Assembly: GCF_044647545.1 (NCBI RefSeq)
Contig: NZ_CP172818.1
DNA length: 64,000 nucleotides
From: Escherichia coli
Lineage (GTDB): Bacteria > Pseudomonadota > Gammaproteobacteria > Enterobacterales > Enterobacteriaceae
Reading direction: 5' to 3' (one strand)
Shown: one piece after another, positions 819-64,000 of the stretch
Position numbering within the stretch: the first letter of the stretch is position 1
Layout: each line of letters begins with the position of its first letter
Notes under the pieces: model-generated
The model's input: only the letters and a program-made list of their open reading frames with translations
Databases searched by the model: none
What the model was told of the DNA's origin: nothing
Position numbers and translations under genes: made by a program

Positions 819-2498
819 ATGAAACAGAAAATTACGGATTACCTGGACGAAATCTACGGTGGAACATTTACCACAACTCATTTACAGAAACTTGTAACGC
901 GTCTTGAGAGTGCGAAACGATTAATTACACTGCGACGTAAAAAACACTGGGATGAAAGTGATGTCGTGTTAATCACCTATGCCGATCAATTTCACAGTAA
1001 TGATTTAAAACCACTACCCACATTTAATCAGTTTTACCCTCAATGGCTGCAAAGCATTTTTTCACATGTTCATTTATTACCTTTTTATCCATGGTCATCT
1101 GATGATGGCTTTTCGGTAATTGATTATCAACAGGTCGCTAGTGAAGCGGGGGAGTGGCAGGATATTCAGCAACTCGGTGAATGCAGTCATTTAATGTTTG
1201 ATTTTGTCTGCAACCATATGTCGGCAAAAAGTGAATGGTTTAAAAACTATTTACAACAGCAGCCAGGTTTTGAAGATTTTTTTATTGCCGTTGACCCGCA
1301 AACCGATCTCAGCGTCGTCACTCGCCCGCGTGCGTTACCGTTATTAACGCCATTCCAGATGCGCGATCATTCAACGCGCCATTTATGGACCACCTTTAGT
1401 GACGATCAAATTGACCTGAATTACCGTAGCCCTGAAGTGTTACTGGCGATGGTGGATGTATTGCTGTGCTACCTGGAAAAGGGCGCAGAATATGTCCGTC
1501 TGGATGCCGTTGGCTTTATGTGGAAAGAGCCGGGAACAAGCTGCATCCATCTGGAAAAAACACATCTGATTATCAAACTGTTACGGTCGATTATTGATGA
1601 CGTAGCACCAGGTACAGTGATCATTACCGAGACCAATGTTCCGCACAGAGACAACATTGCTTACTTTGGCAACGGTGATGACGAAGCGCATATGGTGTAC
1701 CAGTTCTCGCTGCCGCCGCTGGTGCTGCATGCGGTGCAAAAACAGAACGTTGAGGCGCTTTGTGCGTGGGCGCAAAACCTGACACTACCTTCCAGCAACA
1801 CCACCTGGTTTAACTTCCTCGCCTCTCACGATGGCATCGGGCTTAACCCACTGCGTGGCTTGCTACCCGAAAGCGAAATATTAGCGCTGGTCGAGGCATT
1901 ACAGCAGGAAGGGGCATTAGTTAACTGGAAAAATAATCCCGACGGTACGCGTAGCCCGTATGAAATGAATGTCACTTATATGGATGCGTTAAACCGCCGC
2001 GAGAGTAGCGATGAAGAACGTTGCGCCAGGTTTATCCTTGCCCATGCGATTTTGTTAAGTTTCCCCGGTGTGCCAGCGATATATATTCAAAGTATTCTGG
2101 GCTCGCGTAATGATTACGCAGGTGTCGAAAAACTGGAATATAACCGTGCGATTAACCGTAAAAAATATTACAGTGAAGAGATCACGACCGAACTGAACAA
2201 TAAAACGACGTTAAGGCACGCGGTATATCATGAATTGTCGCGACTAATTAAAATTCGTCGAAGTCATAACGAGTTTCATCCAGATAATGATTTTACCATC
2301 GACACGGTTAATTCATCCGTAATGTGTATTCAAAGAAGCAACGCGGATGGTAATTGTCTGACAGGATTGTTTAATGTCAGTGAAAATATTCAGCATATAA
2401 ATATTACTGGCCTGCACGGTCGGGATCTGATTAGTGAAGTTGATATAGTGGGTAATGAAATAACGCTGCGCCCCTGGCAGGTTATGTGGATTAAATAA
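819..2498 (+). CDS. ycjM: sucrose-phosphorylase-family glycoside phosphorylase (glucosylglycerate phosphorylase-like)
   Basis: ORF 792-2498; likely ATG at 819 (MKQKITDYL...); GH13-like motifs; first gene of ycjM-V cluster. Confidence 0.85.
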   Translation: MKQKITDYLDEIYGGTFTTTHLQKLVTRLESAKRLITLRRKKHWDESDVVLITYADQFHSNDLKPLPTFNQFYPQWLQSIFSHVHLLPFYPWSSDDGFSVIDYQQVASEAGEWQDIQQLGECSHLMFDFVCNHMSAKSEWFKNYLQQQPGFEDFFIAVDPQTDLSVVTRPRALPLLTPFQMRDHSTRHLWTTFSDDQIDLNYRSPEVLLAMVDVLLCYLEKGAEYVRLDAVGFMWKEPGTSCIHLEKTHLIIKLLRSIIDDVAPGTVIITETNVPHRDNIAYFGNGDDEAHMVYQFSLPPLVLHAVQKQNVEALCAWAQNLTLPSSNTTWFNFLASHDGIGLNPLRGLLPESEILALVEALQQEGALVNWKNNPDGTRSPYEMNVTYMDALNRRESSDEERCARFILAHAILLSFPGVPAIYIQSILGSRNDYAGVEKLEYNRAINRKKYYSEEITTELNNKTTLRHAVYHELSRLIKIRRSHNEFHPDNDFTIDTVNSSVMCIQRSNADGNCLTGLFNVSENIQHINITGLHGRDLISEVDIVGNEITLRPWQVMWIK

Positions 2499-2511
2499 AA
2501 AGGAACATCTC

Positions 2512-3804
2512 ATGATTAAATCAAAAATCGTGCTGTTATCAGCACTGGTTTCCTGCGCCCTGATTTCAGGTTGTAAAGAAGAAAATAAAACGAATGTCTC
2601 CATTGAGTTTATGCATTCTTCGGTGGAACAGGAACGCCAGGCGGTAATTAGTCAGTTAATTGCGCGTTTTGAAAAAGAAAACCCGGGCATCACCGTTAAA
2701 CAAGTGCCCGTGGAAGAAGACGCCTATAACACCAAAGTCATTACCCTTTCACGTAGTGGTTCGCTGCCGGAAGTGATCGAAACCAGCCATGACTACGCCA
2801 AAGTTATGGACAAAGAGCAGCTTATCGATCGCCTGGCGGTTGCCACGGTCATCAGCAACGTCGGTGAAGGCGCGTTCTACGATGGCGTTCTGCGGATTGT
2901 GCGCACCGAAGATGGTAGCGCATGGACCGGTGTTCCTGTCAGCGCCTGGATTGGCGGCATCTGGTATCGCAAAGATGTGCTGGCAAAAGCCGGGCTGGAT
3001 GAGCCGAAAAACTGGCAACAGTTGCTGGATGTCGCACAGAAACTGAACGATCCGGCGAATAAAAAATACGGTATTGCACTGCCGACGGCAGAAAGCGTGC
3101 TGACGGAGCAATCTTTCTCCCAGTTTGCGTTATCCAATCAGGCTAACGTCTTTAACGCCGAAGGCAAAATCACCCTTGATACCCCAGAGATGATGCAGGC
3201 GCTGACCTATTACCGCGACCTTGCTGCCAACACCATGCCGGGTTCTAACGACATTATGGAAGTGAAAGACGCCTTTATGAACGGCACCGCGCCGATGGCG
3301 ATTTACTCCACCTATATCCTTCCGGCTGTGATTAAAGAAGGCGACCCGAAAAATGTCGGTTTCGTGGTGCCAACCGAGAAAAACTCGGCGGTCTACGGCA
3401 TGTTGACCTCGCTAACCATTACCGCCGGGCAAAAGAGCGAAGAGACGGAGGCGGCGGAAAAATTTGTCACCTTTATGGAGCAGGCGGACAACATTGCCGA
3501 CTGGGTGATGATGTCGCCAGGCGCGGCGCTGCCGGTGAACAAAGCGGTTGTGACGACTGCCACCTGGAAAGATAACGACGTGATTAAGGCGCTGGGAGAC
3601 TTGCCGAATCAGTTGATTAGCGAACTGCCAAATATTCAGGTCTTTGGCGCAGTAGGGGATAAAAACTTTACCCGCATGGGCGATGTGACGGGGTCTGGCG
3701 TGGTGAGTTCAATGGTGCATAACGTCACCGTGGGGAAAGCCGATCTCCCTGGCACGCTGCAAGCGAGCCAGAAAAAGCTGGATGAACTGATCGAACAGCA
3801 CTAA
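2512..3804 (+). CDS. ycjN: ABC transporter periplasmic sugar-binding lipoprotein
   Basis: 430 aa ORF, N-terminal lipoprotein signal (LLSALVSCALISGC), family 1 solute-binding protein features, operon context. Confidence 0.85.
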   Translation: MIKSKIVLLSALVSCALISGCKEENKTNVSIEFMHSSVEQERQAVISQLIARFEKENPGITVKQVPVEEDAYNTKVITLSRSGSLPEVIETSHDYAKVMDKEQLIDRLAVATVISNVGEGAFYDGVLRIVRTEDGSAWTGVPVSAWIGGIWYRKDVLAKAGLDEPKNWQQLLDVAQKLNDPANKKYGIALPTAESVLTEQSFSQFALSNQANVFNAEGKITLDTPEMMQALTYYRDLAANTMPGSNDIMEVKDAFMNGTAPMAIYSTYILPAVIKEGDPKNVGFVVPTEKNSAVYGMLTSLTITAGQKSEETEAAEKFVTFMEQADNIADWVMMSPGAALPVNKAVVTTATWKDNDVIKALGDLPNQLISELPNIQVFGAVGDKNFTRMGDVTGSGVVSSMVHNVTVGKADLPGTLQASQKKLDELIEQH

Positions 3805-3824
3805 ACCCAGGACAGGAATCCGCA

Positions 3825-4706
3825 ATGAACAGGCTTTTTTCAGGTCGTTCCGATATGCCTTTTGCACTGCTGCTTCTCGCGCCCAGCTTATTACTGCTGG
3901 GCGGTCTGGTGGCGTGGCCGATGGTGTCGAATATCGAAATCAGTTTTTTACGTCTGCCGCTCAATCCCAACATCGAGTCAACCTTTGTTGGGGTGAGTAA
4001 CTATGTGCGTATTCTCTCCGATCCCGGCTTCTGGCACTCGCTGTGGATGACGGTCTGGTATACCGCGCTGGTGGTGGCGGGCAGCACCGTGCTCGGGCTG
4101 GCCGTGGCGATGTTTTTCAACCGCGAGTTCCGCCTGCGCAAAACCGCGCGTTCGCTGGTGATCCTCTCCTACGTAACGCCGTCTATTTCGCTGGTGTTCG
4201 CCTGGAAATACATGTTCAACAACGGTTACGGCATTGTGAACTACCTCGGCGTCGATCTTCTGCATCTCTATGAGCAGGCACCGCTGTGGTTCGATAATCC
4301 GGGCAGTAGCTTTGTGCTGGTGGTGCTGTTCGCCATCTGGCGCTACTTCCCCTATGCCTTTATTTCGTTTCTGGCGATTTTGCAGACCATCGACAAATCG
4401 CTGTACGAAGCGGCAGAGATGGATGGCGCTAATGCCTGGCAACGGTTTCGTATCGTCACGCTGCCCGCGATTATGCCGGTCCTGGCGACGGTGGTGACCC
4501 TGCGCACCATCTGGATGTTCTACATGTTCGCGGATGTTTATCTGCTGACGACCAAGGTCGATATTCTCGGTGTCTATCTCTACAAAACCGCCTTTGCCTT
4601 TAATGACTTAGGGAAAGCGGCGGCGATCTCGGTGGTGCTCTTCATCATTATTTTCGCTGTCATTCTGCTGACCAGGAAACGGGTGAACCTCAATGGCAAC
4701 AAATAA
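3825..4706 (+). CDS. ycjO: ABC transporter permease (MalF-like)
   Basis: 293 aa multi-TM ORF with permease EAA-like loop; overlaps ycjP start by 14 nt (translational coupling). Confidence 0.85.
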   Translation: MNRLFSGRSDMPFALLLLAPSLLLLGGLVAWPMVSNIEISFLRLPLNPNIESTFVGVSNYVRILSDPGFWHSLWMTVWYTALVVAGSTVLGLAVAMFFNREFRLRKTARSLVILSYVTPSISLVFAWKYMFNNGYGIVNYLGVDLLHLYEQAPLWFDNPGSSFVLVVLFAIWRYFPYAFISFLAILQTIDKSLYEAAEMDGANAWQRFRIVTLPAIMPVLATVVTLRTIWMFYMFADVYLLTTKVDILGVYLYKTAFAFNDLGKAAAISVVLFIIIFAVILLTRKRVNLNGNK

Positions 4707-7433: not shown

Positions 7434-8489
7434 GTGAAAAGTGCAATGACAAGCTCTCCGCTGCGAGTCGCGATCATAGGCGCGGGCCAGGTGGCGGATA
7501 AAGTTCATGCTTCGTACTACTGCACCCGCAACGATCTGGAACTGGTGGCTGTCTGTGACAGCCGCCTTTCCCAGGCGCAGGCGCTGGCAGAAAAATACGG
7601 GAATGCATCCGTGTGGGACGATCCGCAGGCCATGCTGCTGGCGGTGAAACCTGATGTGGTTAGCGTCTGCTCACCTAACCGTTTTCATTACGAACATACC
7701 CTGATGGCGCTGGAAGCGGGCTGCCATGTGATGTGCGAAAAACCGCCCGCCATGACGCCAGAACAAGCGCGGGAAATGTGCGATACCGCGCGCAAACAGG
7801 GCAAGGTGCTGGCCTACGACTTTCACCATCGTTTTGCACTCGATACGCAACAGCTGCGTGAACAGGTGACCAACGGCGTTTTGGGAGAGATTTACGTTAC
7901 CACCGCCCGCGCCCTGCGTCGCTGCGGTGTTCCCGGCTGGGGTGTCTTTACTAATAAAGAATTGCAGGGCGGCGGGCCGCTTATTGACATCGGCATTCAT
8001 ATGCTGGATGCGGCGATGTATGTACTGGGCTTTCCGGCGGTGAAAAGCGTGACCGCGCATAGCTTTCAAAAGATCGGAACGCAAAAGAGCTGCGGTCAAT
8101 TTGGCGAGTGGGACCCGGCAACCTACAGCGTCGAAGATTCGCTGTTTGGCACCATTGAATTTCATAACGGCGGCATTCTGTGGCTTGAGACCTCATTTGC
8201 ACTCAACATCCGCGAACAGTCGATTATGAACGTCAGCTTTTGTGGTGATAAAGCCGGGGCGACGCTGTTTCCAGCACATATCTACACCGATAACAACGGT
8301 GAGTTAATGACGCTGATGCAACGGGAAATGGCAGACGACAACCGTCATCTGCGCAGTATGGAAGCCTTTATCAACCACGTACAAGGTAAGCCCGTGATGA
8401 TAGCCGACGCCGAGCAGGGGTACATCATCCAGCAACTGGTGGCGGCGTTGTATCAATCCGCAGAAACAGGAACGCGTGTGGAATTATGA
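7434..8489 (+). CDS. ycjS: Gfo/Idh/MocA family NAD-dependent oxidoreductase
   Basis: 351 aa ORF starting at GTG; N-terminal Rossmann (VAIIGAGQVA); operon context. Confidence 0.85.
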   Translation: MKSAMTSSPLRVAIIGAGQVADKVHASYYCTRNDLELVAVCDSRLSQAQALAEKYGNASVWDDPQAMLLAVKPDVVSVCSPNRFHYEHTLMALEAGCHVMCEKPPAMTPEQAREMCDTARKQGKVLAYDFHHRFALDTQQLREQVTNGVLGEIYVTTARALRRCGVPGWGVFTNKELQGGGPLIDIGIHMLDAAMYVLGFPAVKSVTAHSFQKIGTQKSCGQFGEWDPATYSVEDSLFGTIEFHNGGILWLETSFALNIREQSIMNVSFCGDKAGATLFPAHIYTDNNGELMTLMQREMADDNRHLRSMEAFINHVQGKPVMIADAEQGYIIQQLVAALYQSAETGTRVEL

Positions 8490-10752
8490 CCAGGCCAGTA
8501 ACGTTAACGGAACCCCATTTCAGCCAGCATACCCTGAACAAGTATGCTTCGCTGATGGCGCAGGGGAACGGCTATCTTGGGCTTCGCGCCAGCCATGAAG
8601 AAGATTATACGCGCCAGACACGCGGTATGTATCTGGCGGGGCTTTATCATCGCGCGGGGAAAATGACATCAACGAACTGGTGAACCTGCCTGACGTCATA
8701 GGGATGGAGATTACCTTGAATGGTGAACTTTTTGCGCTATCCCGCGAAACGTGGCAGCGCGAGCTTGACTTCGCCAGTGGTGAATTACGTCGCAATGTCG
8801 TCTGGTCTTCAGCCAGCGGCGCACGTTATGCCATTGCCAGCCGTCGCTTTGTTTCGGCAGAACAACTGCCGCTGATGGCGCTGGAAATCAGCATTACGCC
8901 GCTGGACGCTGACGCGTCAGTGCTGATTTCAACAGGCATTGACGCCACGCAAACCAACCACGGACGACAACATCTCGACGAAACCCAGGTGCGGGTGTTT
9001 GGTCAGCATTTGATGCAGGGGATCTATACCACTCAGGATGGACGCAGTGATGTGGCCATCAGCTGTTGCTGCCAGGTGAGCGGTGACGTGCAGCAATGCT
9101 ATACCGCCAAAGAGCGCCGCTTGCTGCAACATACCAGTGCACAACTACCTGCGGGCAAAACGCTGACGCTGCAAAAACGGGTGTGGATCGACTGGCGGGA
9201 CGACAGACACGTCGCTTTAGACGAGTGGGGTAGTGCATCGCTTCGTCAGCTTGAAATGTGTGTACAGCAGAGTTACGACCAACTTCTTGCAGCATCCACA
9301 GAAAACTGGCGTCAATGGTGGCAGAAACGTCGTATCACGGTAAACGGTGGCGATGCGCACGATCAGCAAGCGTTAGATTATGCGCTTTATCACCTACGCA
9401 TCATGACGCCTGCTCACGACGAGCGCAGCAGTATTGCGGCAAAAGGTTTGACCGGGGAAGGCTACAAAGGCCACGTTTTCTGGGATACGGAAGTATTTTT
9501 ACTGCCGTTCCATCTGTTTAGCGAACCGACGATTGCCAGAAGTTTACTGCGTTATCGCTGGCACAACTTGCCAGGCGCGCAGGAGAAAGCGCGACGCAAC
9601 GGCTGGCAGGGCGCGCTATTTCCGTGGGAAAGCGCGCGCAGCGGCGAAGAAGAGACGCCGGAATTTGCCGCCATTAACATTCGCACCGGGCTGCGGCAAA
9701 AAGTGGCCTCGGCGCAGGCGGAACATCATCTGGTCGCCGATATCGCCTGGGCGGTTGTTCAATACTGGCAGACCACGGGGGATGAAAGTTTCATTGCTCA
9801 TGAAGGCATGGCGCTACTTCTGGAAACTGCAAAGTTCTGGATTAGCCGCACGGTGAGGGTTAACGACCGTCTGGAAATTCATGATGTTATTGGGCCAGAC
9901 GAATATACCGAACATGTCAATAATAACGCCTTCACCAGCTATATGGCGTATTACAACGTCCAGCAGGCGCTGAACATCGCTCGTCAATTTGGCTGTAGCG
10001 ACGATGCGTTTATCCATCGCGCCGAAATGTTCCTTAAAGAACTGCGGCTGCCAGAAATTCAGCCCGACCGCGTTTTGCCGCAGGATGATTCGTTTATGGC
10101 GAAACCAGCGATTAATCTGGCGAAATACAAAGCGGCGGCGGGGAAGCAAACCATTCTGCTGGATTATTCACGCGCAGAAGTGAACGAGATGCAGATCCTC
10201 AAACAAGCTGATGTGGTGATGCTCAATTACATGCTGCCGGAGCAGTACTCAGCGGCATCGTGTCTTGCCAATCTGCAATTTTATGAACCGCGCACCATTC
10301 ACGACTCTTCACTGAGTAAAGCGATCCACGGCATTGTTGCCGCACGCTGTGGCCTGTTGGCGCAAAGTTATCAGTTCTGGCGGGAGGGGACTGAAATCGA
10401 TCTTGGTGCTGATCCGCATAGCTGTGATGACGGTATCCACGCTGCCGCAACTGGCGCAATCTGGTTGGGGGCGATTCAGGGTTTTGCCGGGGCGAGCGTG
10501 CGCAACGGTGAATTACATCTCAATCCGGCGTTACCTGAGCAGTGGCAACAGTTGTCTTTCCCTCTGTTCTGGCAGGGCTGTGAATTACAGGTCACTCTTG
10601 ACGCGCAGCGCATTGCGATTCGGACTTCTGCGCCAGTTTCACTGCGTTTGAACGGTCAGCTTATTTCAGTCTCTGAAGAATCTGTTTTCTGTTTAGGGGA
10701 TTTTATTTTGCCCTTCAATGGGACCGCTACCACGCATCAGGAGGGTGAATGA
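8486..10752 (+). pseudogene. ycjT: kojibiose phosphorylase (GH65) with reading frame interrupted by a 1-nt frameshift near 8665-8680
   Basis: Two consecutive ORFs (8486-8683 and 8680-10752) together give a GH65-like protein of about 755 aa; frame changes inside the A-run ggggaaaatgac (restoring one A gives ...HRAGKNDINELVNLPDVIGMEITLNG...). Confidence 0.7.
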
Positions 10753-11408
10753 AACTGCAAGGGGTAATTTTCGATCTGGATGGAGTAATCACCGATACCG
10801 CACATCTGCATTTCCAGGCGTGGCAGCAGATTGCCGCTGAAATTGGCATCAGCATTGATGCGCAGTTTAACGAATTCCTAAAAGGGATCAGCCGCGATGA
10901 GTCCCTGCGGCGAATTCTGCAGCACGGGGGTAAAGAGGGCGATTTTAACCCACAGGAACGGGCGCAACTGGCGTATCGCAAAAATCTGCTTTACGTCCAC
11001 TCACTGCGCGAACTGACGGTTAATGCTGTGCTGCCTGGCATTCACAATTTGCTGGTAGAGCTCCGAGCACAGCAGATTCCGGTTGGGCTGGCTTCTGTCT
11101 CCCTGAATGCGCCGACGATTTTAGCAGCGCTGGAGCTGCGCGAGTTTTTCACCTTCTGCGCGGACGCTTCCCAACTCAAAAATTCGAAACCGGACCCGGA
11201 AATCTTTCTCGCCGCCTGTGCAGGGCTGGGCGTGCCGCCACAGGCATGTATCGGCATTGAAGATGCGCAGGCGGGCATTGAAGCCATTAACGCCAGCGGT
11301 ATGCGCTCGGTGGGGATCGGCGCGGGCTTAACCGGGGCGCAATTGCTGTTGCCCTCAACGGAATCTCTCACATGGTCGCGGTTATCGGCCTTCTGGCAAA
11401 ACGTATAG
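10749..11408 (+). CDS. ycjU: beta-phosphoglucomutase (HAD superfamily)
   Basis: 219 aa ORF with HAD motif I ([12 protein letters not shown]); start overlaps ycjT stop. Confidence 0.9.
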
Positions 11409-11421
11409 CAAAGGAATCAAC

Positions 11422-12504
11422 ATGGCTCAGCTTTCGTTACAACATATTCAAAAAATCTACGATAACCAGGTGCATGTGGTGAAGGACTTCAACCTGGAAA
11501 TTGCCGATAAAGAGTTCATTGTCTTTGTCGGTCCGTCAGGCTGCGGTAAATCGACTACGCTGCGCATGATTGCCGGGCTTGAGGAGATCAGCGGTGGCGA
11601 TCTGTTGATCGACGGCAAACGAATGAATGACGTTCCAGCCAAAGCGCGCAATATCGCGATGGTGTTCCAGAACTACGCGCTGTATCCGCATATGACGGTC
11701 TACGACAACATGGCGTTTGGCCTGAAGATGCAAAAAATCGCCAAAGAGGTGATTGATGAGCGGGTTAACTGGGCGGCGCAAATCCTCGGCCTGCGTGAGT
11801 ACCTGAAACGCAAGCCGGGCGCGCTTTCTGGCGGGCAACGCCAGCGTGTGGCGCTCGGACGGGCGATTGTGCGCGAAGCGGGCGTGTTTTTAATGGATGA
11901 ACCGCTCTCTAACCTTGATGCCAAGCTGCGCGTACAAATGCGCGCAGAGATCAGCAAGCTGCATCAGAAACTGAACACCACCATGATCTACGTGACCCAC
12001 GATCAGACCGAAGCGATGACCATGGCGACGCGGATTGTGATTATGAAGGATGGGATTGTTCAGCAGGTCGGTGCGCCGAAAACGGTTTATAACCAACCTG
12101 CGAATATGTTTGTTGCCGGATTTATTGGATCGCCTGCGATGAATTTTATTCGCGGCACGATCGATGGCGATAAATTCGTTACGGAAACGCTTAAATTAAC
12201 CATACCCGAAGAGAAATTAGCGGTTCTGAAAACACAGGAAAGTTTGCATAAGCCCATCGTGATGGGAATACGCCCGGAAGATATTCATCCGGACGCGCAA
12301 GAGGAAAATAACATTTCCGCCAAAATTAGCGTGGCAGAATTAACCGGTGCGGAATTTATGCTCTACACCACGGTTGGGGGGCACGAGTTAGTGGTCCGTG
12401 CTGGTGCGTTAAATGATTATCATGCAGGAGAAAATATCACTATTCATTTTGATATGACTAAATGTCATTTCTTTGATGCAGAAACGAAAATAGCAATTCG
12501 CTAA
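11422..12504 (+). CDS. ycjV: ABC transporter ATP-binding protein (MalK-like)
   Basis: 360 aa ORF with Walker A (GPSGCGKST), ABC signature (LSGGQRQRV) and Walker B (FLMDEPLSNLD). Confidence 0.85.
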   Translation: MAQLSLQHIQKIYDNQVHVVKDFNLEIADKEFIVFVGPSGCGKSTTLRMIAGLEEISGGDLLIDGKRMNDVPAKARNIAMVFQNYALYPHMTVYDNMAFGLKMQKIAKEVIDERVNWAAQILGLREYLKRKPGALSGGQRQRVALGRAIVREAGVFLMDEPLSNLDAKLRVQMRAEISKLHQKLNTTMIYVTHDQTEAMTMATRIVIMKDGIVQQVGAPKTVYNQPANMFVAGFIGSPAMNFIRGTIDGDKFVTETLKLTIPEEKLAVLKTQESLHKPIVMGIRPEDIHPDAQEENNISAKISVAELTGAEFMLYTTVGGHELVVRAGALNDYHAGENITIHFDMTKCHFFDAETKIAIR

Positions 12505-21138: not shown

Positions 21139-21318
21139 GATCGTCTCTGGTTCAGGAAGTATTACAGGCAGTGTTGTGCAAATTTTGCGGATTATCAAAT
21201 CCTTTTCTTCAACGCTATGTTATCGATCTTTTCACTTTTTTGCCGGAAGTTGTTTGCATTTCTTTAAGGCGAAACAAATAATTACGCATCAATTTTAATG
21301 TCGGTTAGAGGGAAACTT

Positions 21319-24014: not shown

Positions 24015-24253
24015 TGTTTTATCAGGCTCCTCCAGATAATTGTCGTCATGCCGGAAACCCCTGGCGGGACTATTTTACCGCGACAATTCATTCAGATCAT
24101 CAATAGTCAGGGAAGGAAGTAGCAACTCTAACTAATCAATACGTTGATTGTAAATCCAGCTAAGAGGTGAGGTTTTCAGAGCAGACAACGGTGAAATGTC
24201 ATGGTATTGTTACGTTTAGGTAACAAGAAATTTGTCTGCACAAGGATTACATC

Positions 24254-32544: not shown

Positions 32545-32640
32545 ATAAAAAAATAGAGTCTGTCGACATCCGCCAGACTCTACAGTACACACAGCAGTGC
32601 ATCCGCGTCTTAAATCCGGCATGGTCTCCTCTGCGCCGGT
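32545..32640 (-). ncRNA. mcaS: small regulatory RNA McaS (IsrA)
   Basis: Reverse complement reads ACCGGCGCAGAGGAGAC...GAGTCTGGCGGATGTCGACAGACTCTATTTTTTTAT, matching the recalled McaS sequence including terminator hairpin and U-tail; abgR-smrA intergenic location. Confidence 0.8.
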
Positions 32641-36017: not shown

Positions 36018-36139
36018 GCAGGTGAATGCAACGTCAAGCGATGGGCGTTGCGCTCCATATTGTCTTACTTCCTTTTTTGAATTACTGCATAGCACAATTG
36101 ATTCGTACGACGCCGACTTTGATGAGTCGGCTTTTTTTT
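36018..36139 (+). ncRNA. fnrS: FNR-activated small RNA FnrS
   Basis: Sequence GCAGGTGAATGCAACGTCAAGCGATGGGCG...CGACGCCGACTTTGATGAGTCGGCTTTTTTTT matches recalled FnrS, ending in a terminator hairpin plus 8 Ts; zntB-dbpA intergenic location. Confidence 0.8.
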
Positions 36140-37901: not shown

Positions 37902-38837
37902 TTATTTCACTTCAACCACATTCAGTCGTAACTCATCCAACTGATTTTCATCTTCTTCAGGCTGCCAACCCGCCGGTTGTAGAGGGATCTCTTCGCGATC
38001 AAACGCCAGATCACCCCCGTTAACCACTTCAGAACCGTGGGTAATGCCTTTGAAATCGAACAGGTTGGTATCGCACAGATGCGACGGCACCACATTCTGC
38101 ATCGCGCTGAACATCGTCTCGATACGCCCCGGATAACGTTTATCCCAGTCACGCAACATGTCAGCAATCACCTGACGTTGCAGGTTAGGCTGTGAACCGC
38201 ACAGGTTGCACGGAATAATCGGGAACGCTTTTGCATCGGCAAAGCGCTGAATATCTTTCTCGCGGCAGTAGGCCAGCGGACGAATAACGATATGTTTGCC
38301 ATCATCGCTCATCAGTTTCGGAGGCATACCTTTCATCTTGCCGCCGTAGAACATATTTAAGAACAACGTTTGCAGGATATCGTCACGATGGTGACCCAGC
38401 GCGATCTTCGTCGCTCCCAGTTCCGTTGCGGTACGGTAAAGAATTCCGCGACGAAGACGAGAACACAGTGAGCAAGTGGTTTTGCCCTCCGGAATCTTCT
38501 CTTTCACGATACCGTAAGTGTTCTCTTCCACAATCTTGTACTCAACGCCCAGTTTTTCAAGATACTCGGGCAGAACGTGTTCCGGGAAGCCCGGTTGTTT
38601 TTGATCGAGGTTGACAGCCACCAGCGAAAAATTGATTGGCGCGCTTTGCTGCAAATTGCGCAGAATCTCCAGCATGGTATAGCTGTCTTTACCCCCTGAG
38701 AGGCAAACCATGATGCGATCGCCTTCTTCAATCATATTGAAGTCAGCAATGGCTTCGCCCACATTACGACGCAGACGTTTTTGTAATTTGTTCAGGTTGT
38801 ATTGTTCTTTCTTACTAATTTCTTGATTTTCTTGCAT
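37902..38837 (-). CDS. ttcA: tRNA 2-thiocytidine synthase TtcA
   Basis: 311 aa ORF with PP-loop SGGKDS motif and paired CxxC motifs; its 5' end overlaps the prophage attachment repeat. Confidence 0.85.
38788..38830. repeat. prophage attachment-site direct repeat (attL copy)
   Basis: ttgttcaggttgtattgttctttcttactaatttcttgatttt, identical to 61887-61929. Confidence 0.75.
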
Positions 38838-40414: not shown

Positions 40415-40696
40415 TTAATTTGAATACAATGCAATTCTCGAGGACTGAAGTTTCTCGCAATTAAAATTTATCAGTTTTACTTTCTGCTCTCTGGAAACGC
40501 CTGCTTCTTTTTTACCTGAGAGCATTTTTTCGCATTCTGATTTCGTTAGTTTAGATTTTGAATATCTTGTCCAGTTAGTAGGAGTGCCACCTTCCTTTTC
40601 AATAGTGGCGGTAATTTTATACATGAACACCTCCATTATTATTTCCAGTGGTTCGTTTATTCCATCTTTCGAGTGCTTCTTTTTCACTTCCACCAT
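40415..40696 (-). CDS. ydaC: prophage protein of unknown function (alternative internal starts give a 69-73 aa product)
   Basis: 93 aa maximal ORF; internal Met candidates (MEVFMYKITATIEKEGG...); overlaps the 3' end of ralR. Confidence 0.6.
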   Translation of the reverse strand: MVEVKKKHSKDGINEPLEIIMEVFMYKITATIEKEGGTPTNWTRYSKSKLTKSECEKMLSGKKEAGVSREQKVKLINFNCEKLQSSRIALYSN

Positions 40697-54408: not shown

Positions 54409-54524
54409 TGGCGGGGCCATCTGTACGCGTGAATGAATGGTTCAGTGCTTATGCGATGGCGGGTGTGGCTTACAGCCGTGTTTCGACGTTCTCCGGGGAT
54501 TATCTCCGCGTAACTGACAACAAG

Positions 54525-55720
<1,196 letters not shown>

Positions 55721-59340: not shown

Positions 59341-59915
59341 TGGCATTCAGAATGAGTGAACAATCACGTACCGTAAAAATTTATAACCTGCTGGCCGGAA
59401 CTAATGAGTTTATTGGTGAAGGTGACGCATATATTCCACCTCATACAGGGCTGCCAGCTAATTCTACAGATATCGCCCCACCGGAAATTCCTGCTGGCTT
59501 TGTGGCAGTTTTTAACAGTGAAAATGAATCGTGGAATATTGTTGAAGACCATCGTGGTAAAACGGTCTATGACGTGGCGTCGGGGGACGCATTGTTTATT
59601 TCTGAACTCGGACCGCTACCAGAGAATGTCACCTGGTTGTCGCCAGCAGGGGAGTATCAGAAGTGGGACGGCGTATCCTGGGTGAATGATGAGGAAGCAG
59701 AAAAACTGTTTCGGATACGGGAAGCGGAAGAAAGAAAAAGCAACCTGATGCAGGTAGCCAGTGAGCATATTGCGCCGCTTCAGGATGCTGCAGATCTGGA
59801 AATTGCAACGGAGGAAGAAACCCCGTTGCTGGAAGCATGGAAAAAGTATCGGGTATTGCTGAACCGTGTTGATACGTCAACTGCACAGGATATTGAATGG
59901 CCAGCACTGCCGTAG
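59340..59915 (+). CDS. tfaR: tail fibre assembly protein
   Basis: 191 aa ORF whose ATG overlaps the stfR stop (TAATG); Tfa family. Confidence 0.85.
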
Positions 59916-61882: not shown

Positions 61883-61936
61883 TTACTTGTTCAGGTTGTA
61901 TTGTTCTTTCTTACTAATTTCTTGATTTTGCGACAT
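61883..61936 (-). pseudogene. ttcC: displaced N-terminal fragment of ttcA (17 codons)
   Basis: Minus-strand ATG at 61934-61936 encodes [17 protein letters not shown] then stop; parallels ttcA N-terminus [17 protein letters not shown]. Confidence 0.5.
61887..61929. repeat. prophage attachment-site direct repeat (attR copy)
   Basis: Identical 43-bp copy of 38788-38830. Confidence 0.75.
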
Positions 61937-62111
61937 TTAAAAGCGACTCAATTCGTTATATGGCATCAGAAGAGTATGCGTCATGCCGGAACGCCCAGCA
62001 TAAGAAATCTGATATAAAAACTGTGGCGTGTATGGTACGGATTAGAGGGGAAAATGTCAGCACATTTGCGAAATGAATCAAAAAGCCCGCAGCAATGTGC
62101 GGGCGTTAGTG

Positions 62112-62627
<516 letters not shown>

Positions 62628-62686
62628 TTAGATCAAAGGAGGAAGAATAAGCAGAAAAAGCCCGCCATAACAGCGGGCAGGAGGAT

Positions 62687-63820
62687 TTAGAACTGATAAA
62701 CCAGACCTAAAGCGACAATATCATCGGTAGAGATGCCGTTGGCAGCGTAGAAGCTGTCATCTTCATCCAACAGGTTGATTTTATAGTCAACGTAGGTGGA
62801 CATATTTTTGTTGAAATAGTAAGTCGCGCCAACATCGGCGTATTTAACCAGATCTTTATCATCAACACCTGCCGGGTTGTCTGCACCACCGGCAGCGTGA
62901 AGGTCACGGCCTTTAGACATCAGGAAAGAGACTGCCGGACGCAGACCAAAATCAAACTGGTACTGTGCAGTAACTTCAAAGTTCTGGGTTTTGTTCGCAA
63001 CTGCATAATCGCTGTCGCCAAACGGGGTCATGTTACGCGTTTCTGAATACATGGTTGCCAGGTAAATATTGTTAGCATCGTATTTTAGCCCAGCAGTCCA
63101 CGCGTCTGCTTTATCACCACCTGCCGCAGTATGGTTAACCTGGTCATTGGTGCGGTCAGATGAGGTGTATGCCGCACCAGCGCTAAAGCCCATGCCTAAA
63201 TCATATGTTGTGGAAAGACCCCAGCCGTCACCGTTTTCATGGCGAACATCACGTCCGTTGTTGGTGCCTTCCTGACCATTACTGGCACCTTCGTTGTTAC
63301 CTTGATACTGCACCGCGAAGTTCAGACCATTTACCAGACCGAAGAAATCAGTATTACGATAAGTCGCGACGCCGTTGGCACGACCAGTCATAAAGTTGTC
63401 TGCATTGGTATAAGAGTCACCGCCAAATTCAGGCAGCATATCGGTCCAGCCTTCGATGTCGTACATTACGCCATAATTACGTCCGTAATCGAAAGAACCG
63501 TAATCTGCAAATTTCAGTCCGGCAAATGCCAGACGGGTCCATGACTGGTTTGTTGAAGATTCAGTGTTGTTTGCCTGAATATTGTATTCCCATTGACCGT
63601 AGCCAGTGAGTTGATCGTTAATTTGGGTTTCGCCTTTAAAACCCAGACGCGCATAGCTCTGGTCGCCATCTTTCGCTGAATTATCAGAAAAATAATGCAG
63701 GCCATCAACTTTGCCATACAGATCCAATTTGTTGCCGTCTTTATTATAAACTTCGGCTGCATGTGCAGCACCTGCGGCGAGCAGGGCAGGAATTAAAAGT
63801 GCCAGTACTTTGCTTTTCAT
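62687..63820 (-). CDS. ompN: outer membrane porin OmpN (OmpC/OmpF family)
   Basis: 377 aa ORF with signal peptide ([21 protein letters not shown]) and C-terminal ...LGLVYQF. Confidence 0.85.
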
Positions 63821-64000
63821 TGAATAAATCCTTTAGTTATTTTATTTGCCTTTTATCCCCATTTCGGGGAGTGAAAACATCCTAAAGGAGAAGTTCAGTT
63901 AGCCGATAAATATCATTTGTTACGCCTTAAGTAAAACCTTAATCAAATAATTCTACGGAAATGATAATAAGTTTGGTGAATATATTGTTGGCGACATATA

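Follow-up and report, generated by a model that had tools for sequence, protein, structure and literature searches.

In Escherichia coli K-12, YcjT is a GH65 kojibiose phosphorylase according to Mukherjee, Narindoshvili and Raushel (Biochemistry 2018), as cited in PMC11543891. Among solved structures, that of the Caldicellulosiruptor kojibiose phosphorylase 3WIQ is nearest (E=1.6e-110). The activity expected of a functional YcjT is the phosphorolytic cleavage of kojibiose, yielding glucose and beta-glucose 1-phosphate. Here we describe the copy of this gene found in a 64,000-nt stretch of the Escherichia coli contig NZ_CP172818.1; the whole stretch is referred to below as the window, and positions are counted from its first letter. 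The gene occupies the same position in the ycjM-ompG cluster as K-12 ycjT, and the protein obtained by restoring one missing base possesses the same three Pfam GH65 domains and aligns without gaps to all 755 residues of K-12 YcjT at 94% identity. The frame in the window, by contrast, is broken at codon 60. The two alleles also differ at the site of the break, where K-12 has the tract GGGAAAAGGTGAAATC and encodes K-G-E (GGGAAAAGGTGAA), without an A5 run, whereas the window allele is of the K-N-D type (GGGGAAAAATGAC).

The first-pass annotation had proposed that two overlapping open reading frames (ORFs) of the window are contiguous parts of one GH65 phosphorylase, and that this gene is ycjT. 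The Pfam assignments bear out the first proposal. Positions 1-50 of the Glyco_hydro_65N model were found on the N-terminal ORF (E=2.5e-12) and positions 67-231 on the C-terminal ORF, which is read one base back relative to the former and also harbors Glyco_hydro_65m (positions 1-370, E=1e-144) and Glyco_hydro_65C. Because a single GH65N model is split across both ORFs, they represent consecutive pieces of one GH65 protein and not a chance pair. The C-terminal ORF thus holds the remainder of the N-terminal domain together with the catalytic and C-terminal domains, and the N-terminal beta-sandwich, the (alpha/alpha)6 catalytic domain and the C-terminal domain of the family occur in the right order over the two ORFs. 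The assignment to ycjT is equally well founded, given the high full-length identity of the intact allele to K-12 YcjT and its place between ycjS and pgmB; the gene order ycjQRS-ycjT-pgmB-ycjV-ompG is the same as in relatives. A functional gene would have 755 uninterrupted codons; here, however, 59 native residues are followed by 6 foreign ones and a stop codon at 8681-8683, and the N-terminal product ends in ...HRAGKMTSTNW. As written, ycjT is a pseudogene. The coordinates are collected in Table 1.

Table 1. Features of the window and of the ycjT copies compared with it (window positions unless another sequence is named)
Feature	Coordinates	Strand	Remarks
ycjS, upstream neighbour	7434..8489	+	stop overlaps ycjT start (ATGA)
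ycjT, GH65 kojibiose phosphorylase, disrupted as written	8486..10752	+	2267 nt vs intact 2268 nt
N-terminal fragment ORF	8486..8683	+	65 aa = 59 native + 6 out-of-frame (MTSTNW), then TGA
Lesion tract GGGGAAAA	8656..8663	+	intact allele GGGGAAAAA
GTGA overlap, 4 nt	8680..8683	+	premature TGA (8681-8683) overlaps GTG 8680, the earliest possible start downstream
C-terminal fragment ORF	8680..10752	+	690 aa from GTG; 682 aa from ATG 8704
pgmB/ycjU, beta-phosphoglucomutase, downstream neighbour	10749..11408	+	start overlaps ycjT stop
ycjV	11422-12504		intact, 360 aa
Private difference, -A (A5 -> A4)	8659		ycjT, coding
Private difference, G->A (GGAAA -> GAAAA)	12487		ycjV, coding; YcjV E->K
Private difference, -C (CC -> C)	13493		ompG/ycjW intergenic
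Private difference, CTTGTATCAC -> CTTTTCAC	21230-31		mpaA/mppA intergenic
Private difference, AACATTAGCTAAC -> AACTCTAAC	24126-27		ynaI/ynaJ intergenic
33-bp repeat, single copy	21229-21261		mpaA/mppA region
McaS sRNA	32545-32640	-	backbone; Rfam, above gathering score
FnrS sRNA	36018-36135	+	backbone; Rfam, above gathering score
Rac-type prophage at ttcA, 23 kb	38831-61886		43-bp direct repeats at 38788-38830 and 61887-61929
RalA antitoxin sRNA	40440-40618	+	inside Rac; Rfam, above gathering score
IS5-family element	54523-55720		Rac lom region
IS009	59683-59881	+	inside Rac; Rfam, above gathering score
ycjT copy with G5A3 tract	L016 6001-8267
ycjT copy with G5A3 tract	L018 (NZ_CP069522.1) 2357-4623

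At positions 8650-8669 the window reads tcgcgcgggg aaaatgacat, where the intact allele has the composite G4A5 run GGGGAAAAA. Two ST648-type genomes, whose 2268-nt ycjT genes are mutually identical, served as the reference for the intact allele; in FDAARGOS_497 and strain ST648, ycjT is annotated as intact and encodes the 755-aa GH65 protein WP_022645632.1 between ycjS and pgmB. Base-by-base alignment over the 2267 nt of the window gene revealed one difference, the loss of one A (GGGGAAAAA -> GGGGAAAA), which is placed at 8659-8660 in codon 60. The translation of the intact gene contains ...HRAGKNDINELVNLPDVIGMEITLNG..., exactly the sequence that the first-pass annotation had reconstructed when it held that restoring one A rejoins the two ORFs, and the comparison with orthologous ycjT sequences that it had called for returned an ST648-type allele that differs by just this single A in the A-run.

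A megablast search with positions 8486-10752 found ycjT in 4,983 of 5,426 complete E. coli genomes, the best matches being 2268 nt long as against 2267 nt in the window, while the other 443 genomes gave no ycjT match. The K-N-D allele class, defined as the complete genomes matched by a 71-mer centred on the tract, comprises 213 of the 5426 and includes CE10/IAI39/SMS-3-5 and ST648-type strains. None of these 213 complete RefSeq genomes contains an identical match to the G4A4 71-mer of the window (the matches listed all span 72 nt), and the G3A5 71-mer is likewise absent from all 213. The lesion is derived and private, being absent from all complete RefSeq E. coli genomes.

To place this deletion among the other private differences of the window, positions 1-38830 and 61887-64000 were aligned with NZ_AP022098.1 (ST648-type), the nearest complete genome, with identities of 99.98% and 100%, respectively. 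In positions 1-38830 we counted five deletion events, which together remove 8 bases, one substitution and no insertions. Consistently, the first 25000 nt of the window correspond to 25008 nt in the best-scoring complete genomes, in all of the matches listed. Neither the mpaA/mppA nor the ynaI/ynaJ change can be produced by one contiguous deletion, and, when checked separately, neither variant had an exact match in any complete genome. A normal indel:SNP ratio together with one SNP predicts about 0.1-0.5 indels, and the probability of at least five indels given one SNP is 8e-8 to 2e-4. Non-coding DNA makes up just 7.9% of the backbone, yet four of the five private deletions lie there (random placement, P=1.8e-4), and P remains about 3e-3 when roughly twofold intergenic enrichment is allowed for, as estimated from a hand count of the errors in assembly GCA_052952975.1. 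None of the 39 homopolymers of at least 6 nt in the backbone was altered, which is weak evidence against consensus error given an expectation of ~1 by hand scaling from the same assembly. The G->A change in ycjV, which turns ...ETEIAIR of YcjV into ...ETKIAIR, is the sole private substitution in 38.8 kb.

At the 21230 site as well as the 24126 site, K-12 has the ST648-type sequence. We considered whether the private intergenic deletions had been borrowed from other lineages and rejected this, since the window version at 21230 is absent from all complete genomes. The closest sequences at 24126 are those of the K-12-like strains BS-01 and HS-01 over a 70-nt span, and BS-01 has a different deletion, of 5 nt, at the same spot. 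The 24126-27 deletion coincides exactly with the CTAA sequence that is the target of an IS5 insertion in K-12. Between mpaA and mppA, K-12 contains an extra 2.4-kb segment with pgrR, ycjY and a truncated dehydratase gene, flanked by imperfect 33-bp repeats. In the window and in the ST648-type genomes the pgrR-ycjY segment is missing and the repeat occurs just once. The 21230 deletion was also compared with the two K-12 repeats flanking pgrR-ycjY and is not a hybrid of them.

One-base-shorter forms of the tract (G4A4, G3A5 and G5A3) do occur elsewhere, in at least six haplotype backgrounds, although they are rare overall (about 20 contigs versus at least 1000 with the intact protein). The exact 65-aa stub of the window was found in one NCBI assembly (GCA_052952975.1), seven Logan assemblies and one ENA metagenome scaffold, that is, on about nine contigs (six by cluster look-up), several of which are short or of poor quality. 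These nine span at least five haplotype backgrounds; three have G4A4 and six have G3A5, the peptide being identical from both. In one background both forms are present on short contigs (L009 versus L011/L012), for which miscalling is an easier explanation than two independent mutations. GCA_052952975.1 has 42 gap openings in 18.9 kb, most of its genes are fragmented, and its ycjT tract is shortened to G3A5. The ENA scaffold ERZ28647465 has G4A4 on an ST648-like background and also lacks 53 nt of ycjT (window 8738-8790), owing either to a further deletion or to an assembly chimera. By contrast, a clean 6.8-kb contig of CE10/IAI39-type background (L006) shows just one gap when compared with complete genomes, namely G3A5 at this tract.

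The G5A3 form, with a stub ending in ...AGEMTSTNW, is present in 10 independent Logan assemblies on contigs of 20-200 kb, nine of them 50-200 kb; the neighbouring genes are all intact in one of these assemblies, and the other nine were grouped by mostly the same neighbouring proteins. It is also found in the complete genome of FDAARGOS_1267 (NZ_CP069522.1), one of the 213 of the allele class, where RefSeq annotates ycjT as "frameshifted". Derivation of G5A3 from G4A5 requires a substitution plus a deletion, or an unsampled G5A4 intermediate. Of the -1 events at this tract, at least one is thus a genuine pseudogene that is inherited, and at least one is clearly a sequencing error. Neither the 690-aa and 682-aa fragments nor the E->K variant of YcjV in the window had an exact match in a collection of 15 billion proteins.

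The first-pass annotation had left the missing base as either a genuine inactivating mutation or a homopolymer error; both alternatives find support, and the choice is narrowed by the spectrum and the placement of the private differences. We lean slightly towards a consensus or assembly error. The derived, private 1-nt deletion of the deposited sequence (A5 -> A4 in codon 60) would then reflect a homopolymer under-called in a long-read or incompletely polished assembly, and the true ycjT of the strain would be intact and identical to WP_022645632.1. Five private deletions, two of them complex, against one substitution point to a long-read consensus-error spectrum and lie far from known natural spectra, and the sole substitution is itself a homopolymer-boundary shift. 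The same styles of difference fill the error-ridden GCA_052952975.1, which resembles the window in the shortening of short runs (including the ycjT tract), in paired 1-nt gaps (CTTGAGA -> CT-G-GA), in boundary shifts and in its deletion bias, although its gap density is ~17-fold higher (42 in 18.9 kb versus 5 in 38.8 kb) and it is in the window that the events are concentrated in intergenic DNA, the enrichment in GCA_052952975.1 being only about twofold. The absence of the fragment products and of the YcjV variant from the protein collection, as well as of G4A4 and G3A5 from the 213 genomes, also argues for an error, and the combination of changes seen in the window occurs in no other genome or assembly searched. 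The window also crosses the 1.2-kb IS5-family element in Rac without a break, as would rather be expected of an assembly from long reads. Were the intergenic events errors, a hit of that process on ycjT would be far likelier than a real private frameshift coinciding with them; were they real, the ycjT deletion would be real too. It is at this point that a genuine mutation gains weight, since the avoidance of coding DNA by the private deletions is what purifying selection on real mutations would leave and is unlike blind error. In such a case, replication slippage would have removed one A from the G4A5 run, leaving ycjT as a true pseudogene within a sugar-utilisation cluster that is dispensable and decaying; we see a substantial chance of this that nevertheless falls short of even. 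The sole coding deletion falls in a non-essential gene, which 443 of the complete genomes do without, and K-12 has a frameshifted ycjV in the same cluster. The inherited G5A3 frameshift of FDAARGOS_1267 and the 10 Logan assemblies demonstrates that -1 events happen here and are passed on, and contig L006 offers a clean -1 form; the rarity of the exact stub, on the other hand, and the shortness or poor quality of several of its contigs tell against the same reading. It appears improbable that the G4A5 tract of the K-N-D allele is a recurrent natural -1 hot spot where several lineages, this one among them, have independently fixed the loss of kojibiose phosphorylase; were this so, loss of the ycj pathway would perhaps be neutral or advantageous in those niches. 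The lesion is best regarded as an ordinary broken gene or, slightly likelier, an ordinary sequencing error, at a tract where another RefSeq genome already has an annotated frameshift.

Two further explanations would leave the gene in use. The split ycjT might still be functional, through reinitiation at GTGA to give two associating polypeptides or through -1 ribosomal or transcriptional slippage on the G/A run. The premature stop overlaps a GTG codon, just as stop and start overlap where ycjS/ycjT and ycjT/pgmB are translationally coupled, and a P-site tRNA-Gly could in principle re-pair after a -1 slip on G GGG. We nonetheless consider functional splitting very improbable. The frameshifted form is not conserved, the listed rows of the 213 genomes being in frame with the exception of the annotated pseudogene (G4A4 and G3A5 in none, G5A3 in one); there is no in-frame X XXY YYZ heptamer, no Shine-Dalgarno-like sequence was visible upstream of GTG 8680 on direct reading, and the frame is broken within the N-terminal beta-sandwich (between positions 50 and 67 of the 233-position Pfam model). 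A4 and G4 runs are too short for efficient transcriptional slippage. An RNA element at the lesion was also considered, and Rfam detected none there or nearby. Still less probable is that the tract acts as a phase-variable contingency switch for ycjT, despite its three shorter versions in several haplotype backgrounds. Known contingency tracts usually have at least 7 nt, while the runs here have just 4 and 5; OFF forms are rare in complete genomes and contigs alike; most E. coli, including K-12, differ in sequence at the tract and have no A5 run; and no +1 variants were seen in searches not designed for +1 forms. Recoding, reinitiation and phase variation were thus rejected on conservation and tract length.

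The two leading explanations, both of them routine and of small significance beyond annotation, differ in their consequences. If the deletion is real, translation would end six codons past the lesion, within the N-terminal beta-sandwich, to give the 65-aa stub, and the 690-codon remainder, which has no visible ribosome-binding site, could probably be reached only by inefficient reinitiation at GTGA. Kojibiose phosphorylase would presumably be lost, leaving the strain unable to phosphorolyse kojibiose through YcjT, and polarity might lower the expression of the translationally coupled pgmB and of ycjV and ompG further downstream. The ycjM-ompG sugar cluster, itself poorly understood, would then offer one more case of decay. 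If the missing base is an artefact, the assembly would carry deletion errors at ~1 per 10 kb, and its other apparent pseudogenes and small intergenic deletions would be untrustworthy without reads. Because the G4A5 tract is shortened in many independent data sets, truly or by error, frameshift calls at this site need read-level confirmation in either case.

The window also contains a Rac-type prophage at ttcA. The nearest ST648-type relative lacks the prophage, even though it matches the flanks with 100% identity. The best matches to the prophage segment are K-12 strains, with no near-identical ST648-type genomes among them. Identity to K-12 Rac is complete over large stretches (~43-50, 51-54 and 57 kb), while the int-recE end and the tail-fibre region have diverged, with best complete-genome matches of 98.3% and 96.0%. 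The IS5-family element lies in the same place as the ISKpn26-like copy of K-12 Rac, from which it diverges by ~1.3%. Rac was considered as an extra sample of private differences and set aside, because its diverged parts have no near-identical relative; its K-12-identical segments show no gaps.

Among described ycjT genes, a close parallel is the pseudogene of FDAARGOS_1267 (NZ_CP069522.1, I6J97_RS12270), which has a -1 frameshift in the same 9-nt tract leading to the same premature TGA and to a 65-aa stub with one residue different from that of the window. Its tract is G5A3 as opposed to G4A4, its background differs (96.8% identity to the window over 12 kb), and its variant, unlike that of the window, is corroborated by independent data sets. 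Within the same cluster, the ycjV gene of K-12, encoding an ABC-transporter ATPase, is a pseudogene by virtue of a single frameshift in an otherwise intact operon, which indicates that the cluster tolerates decay; in the window, ycjV is intact.
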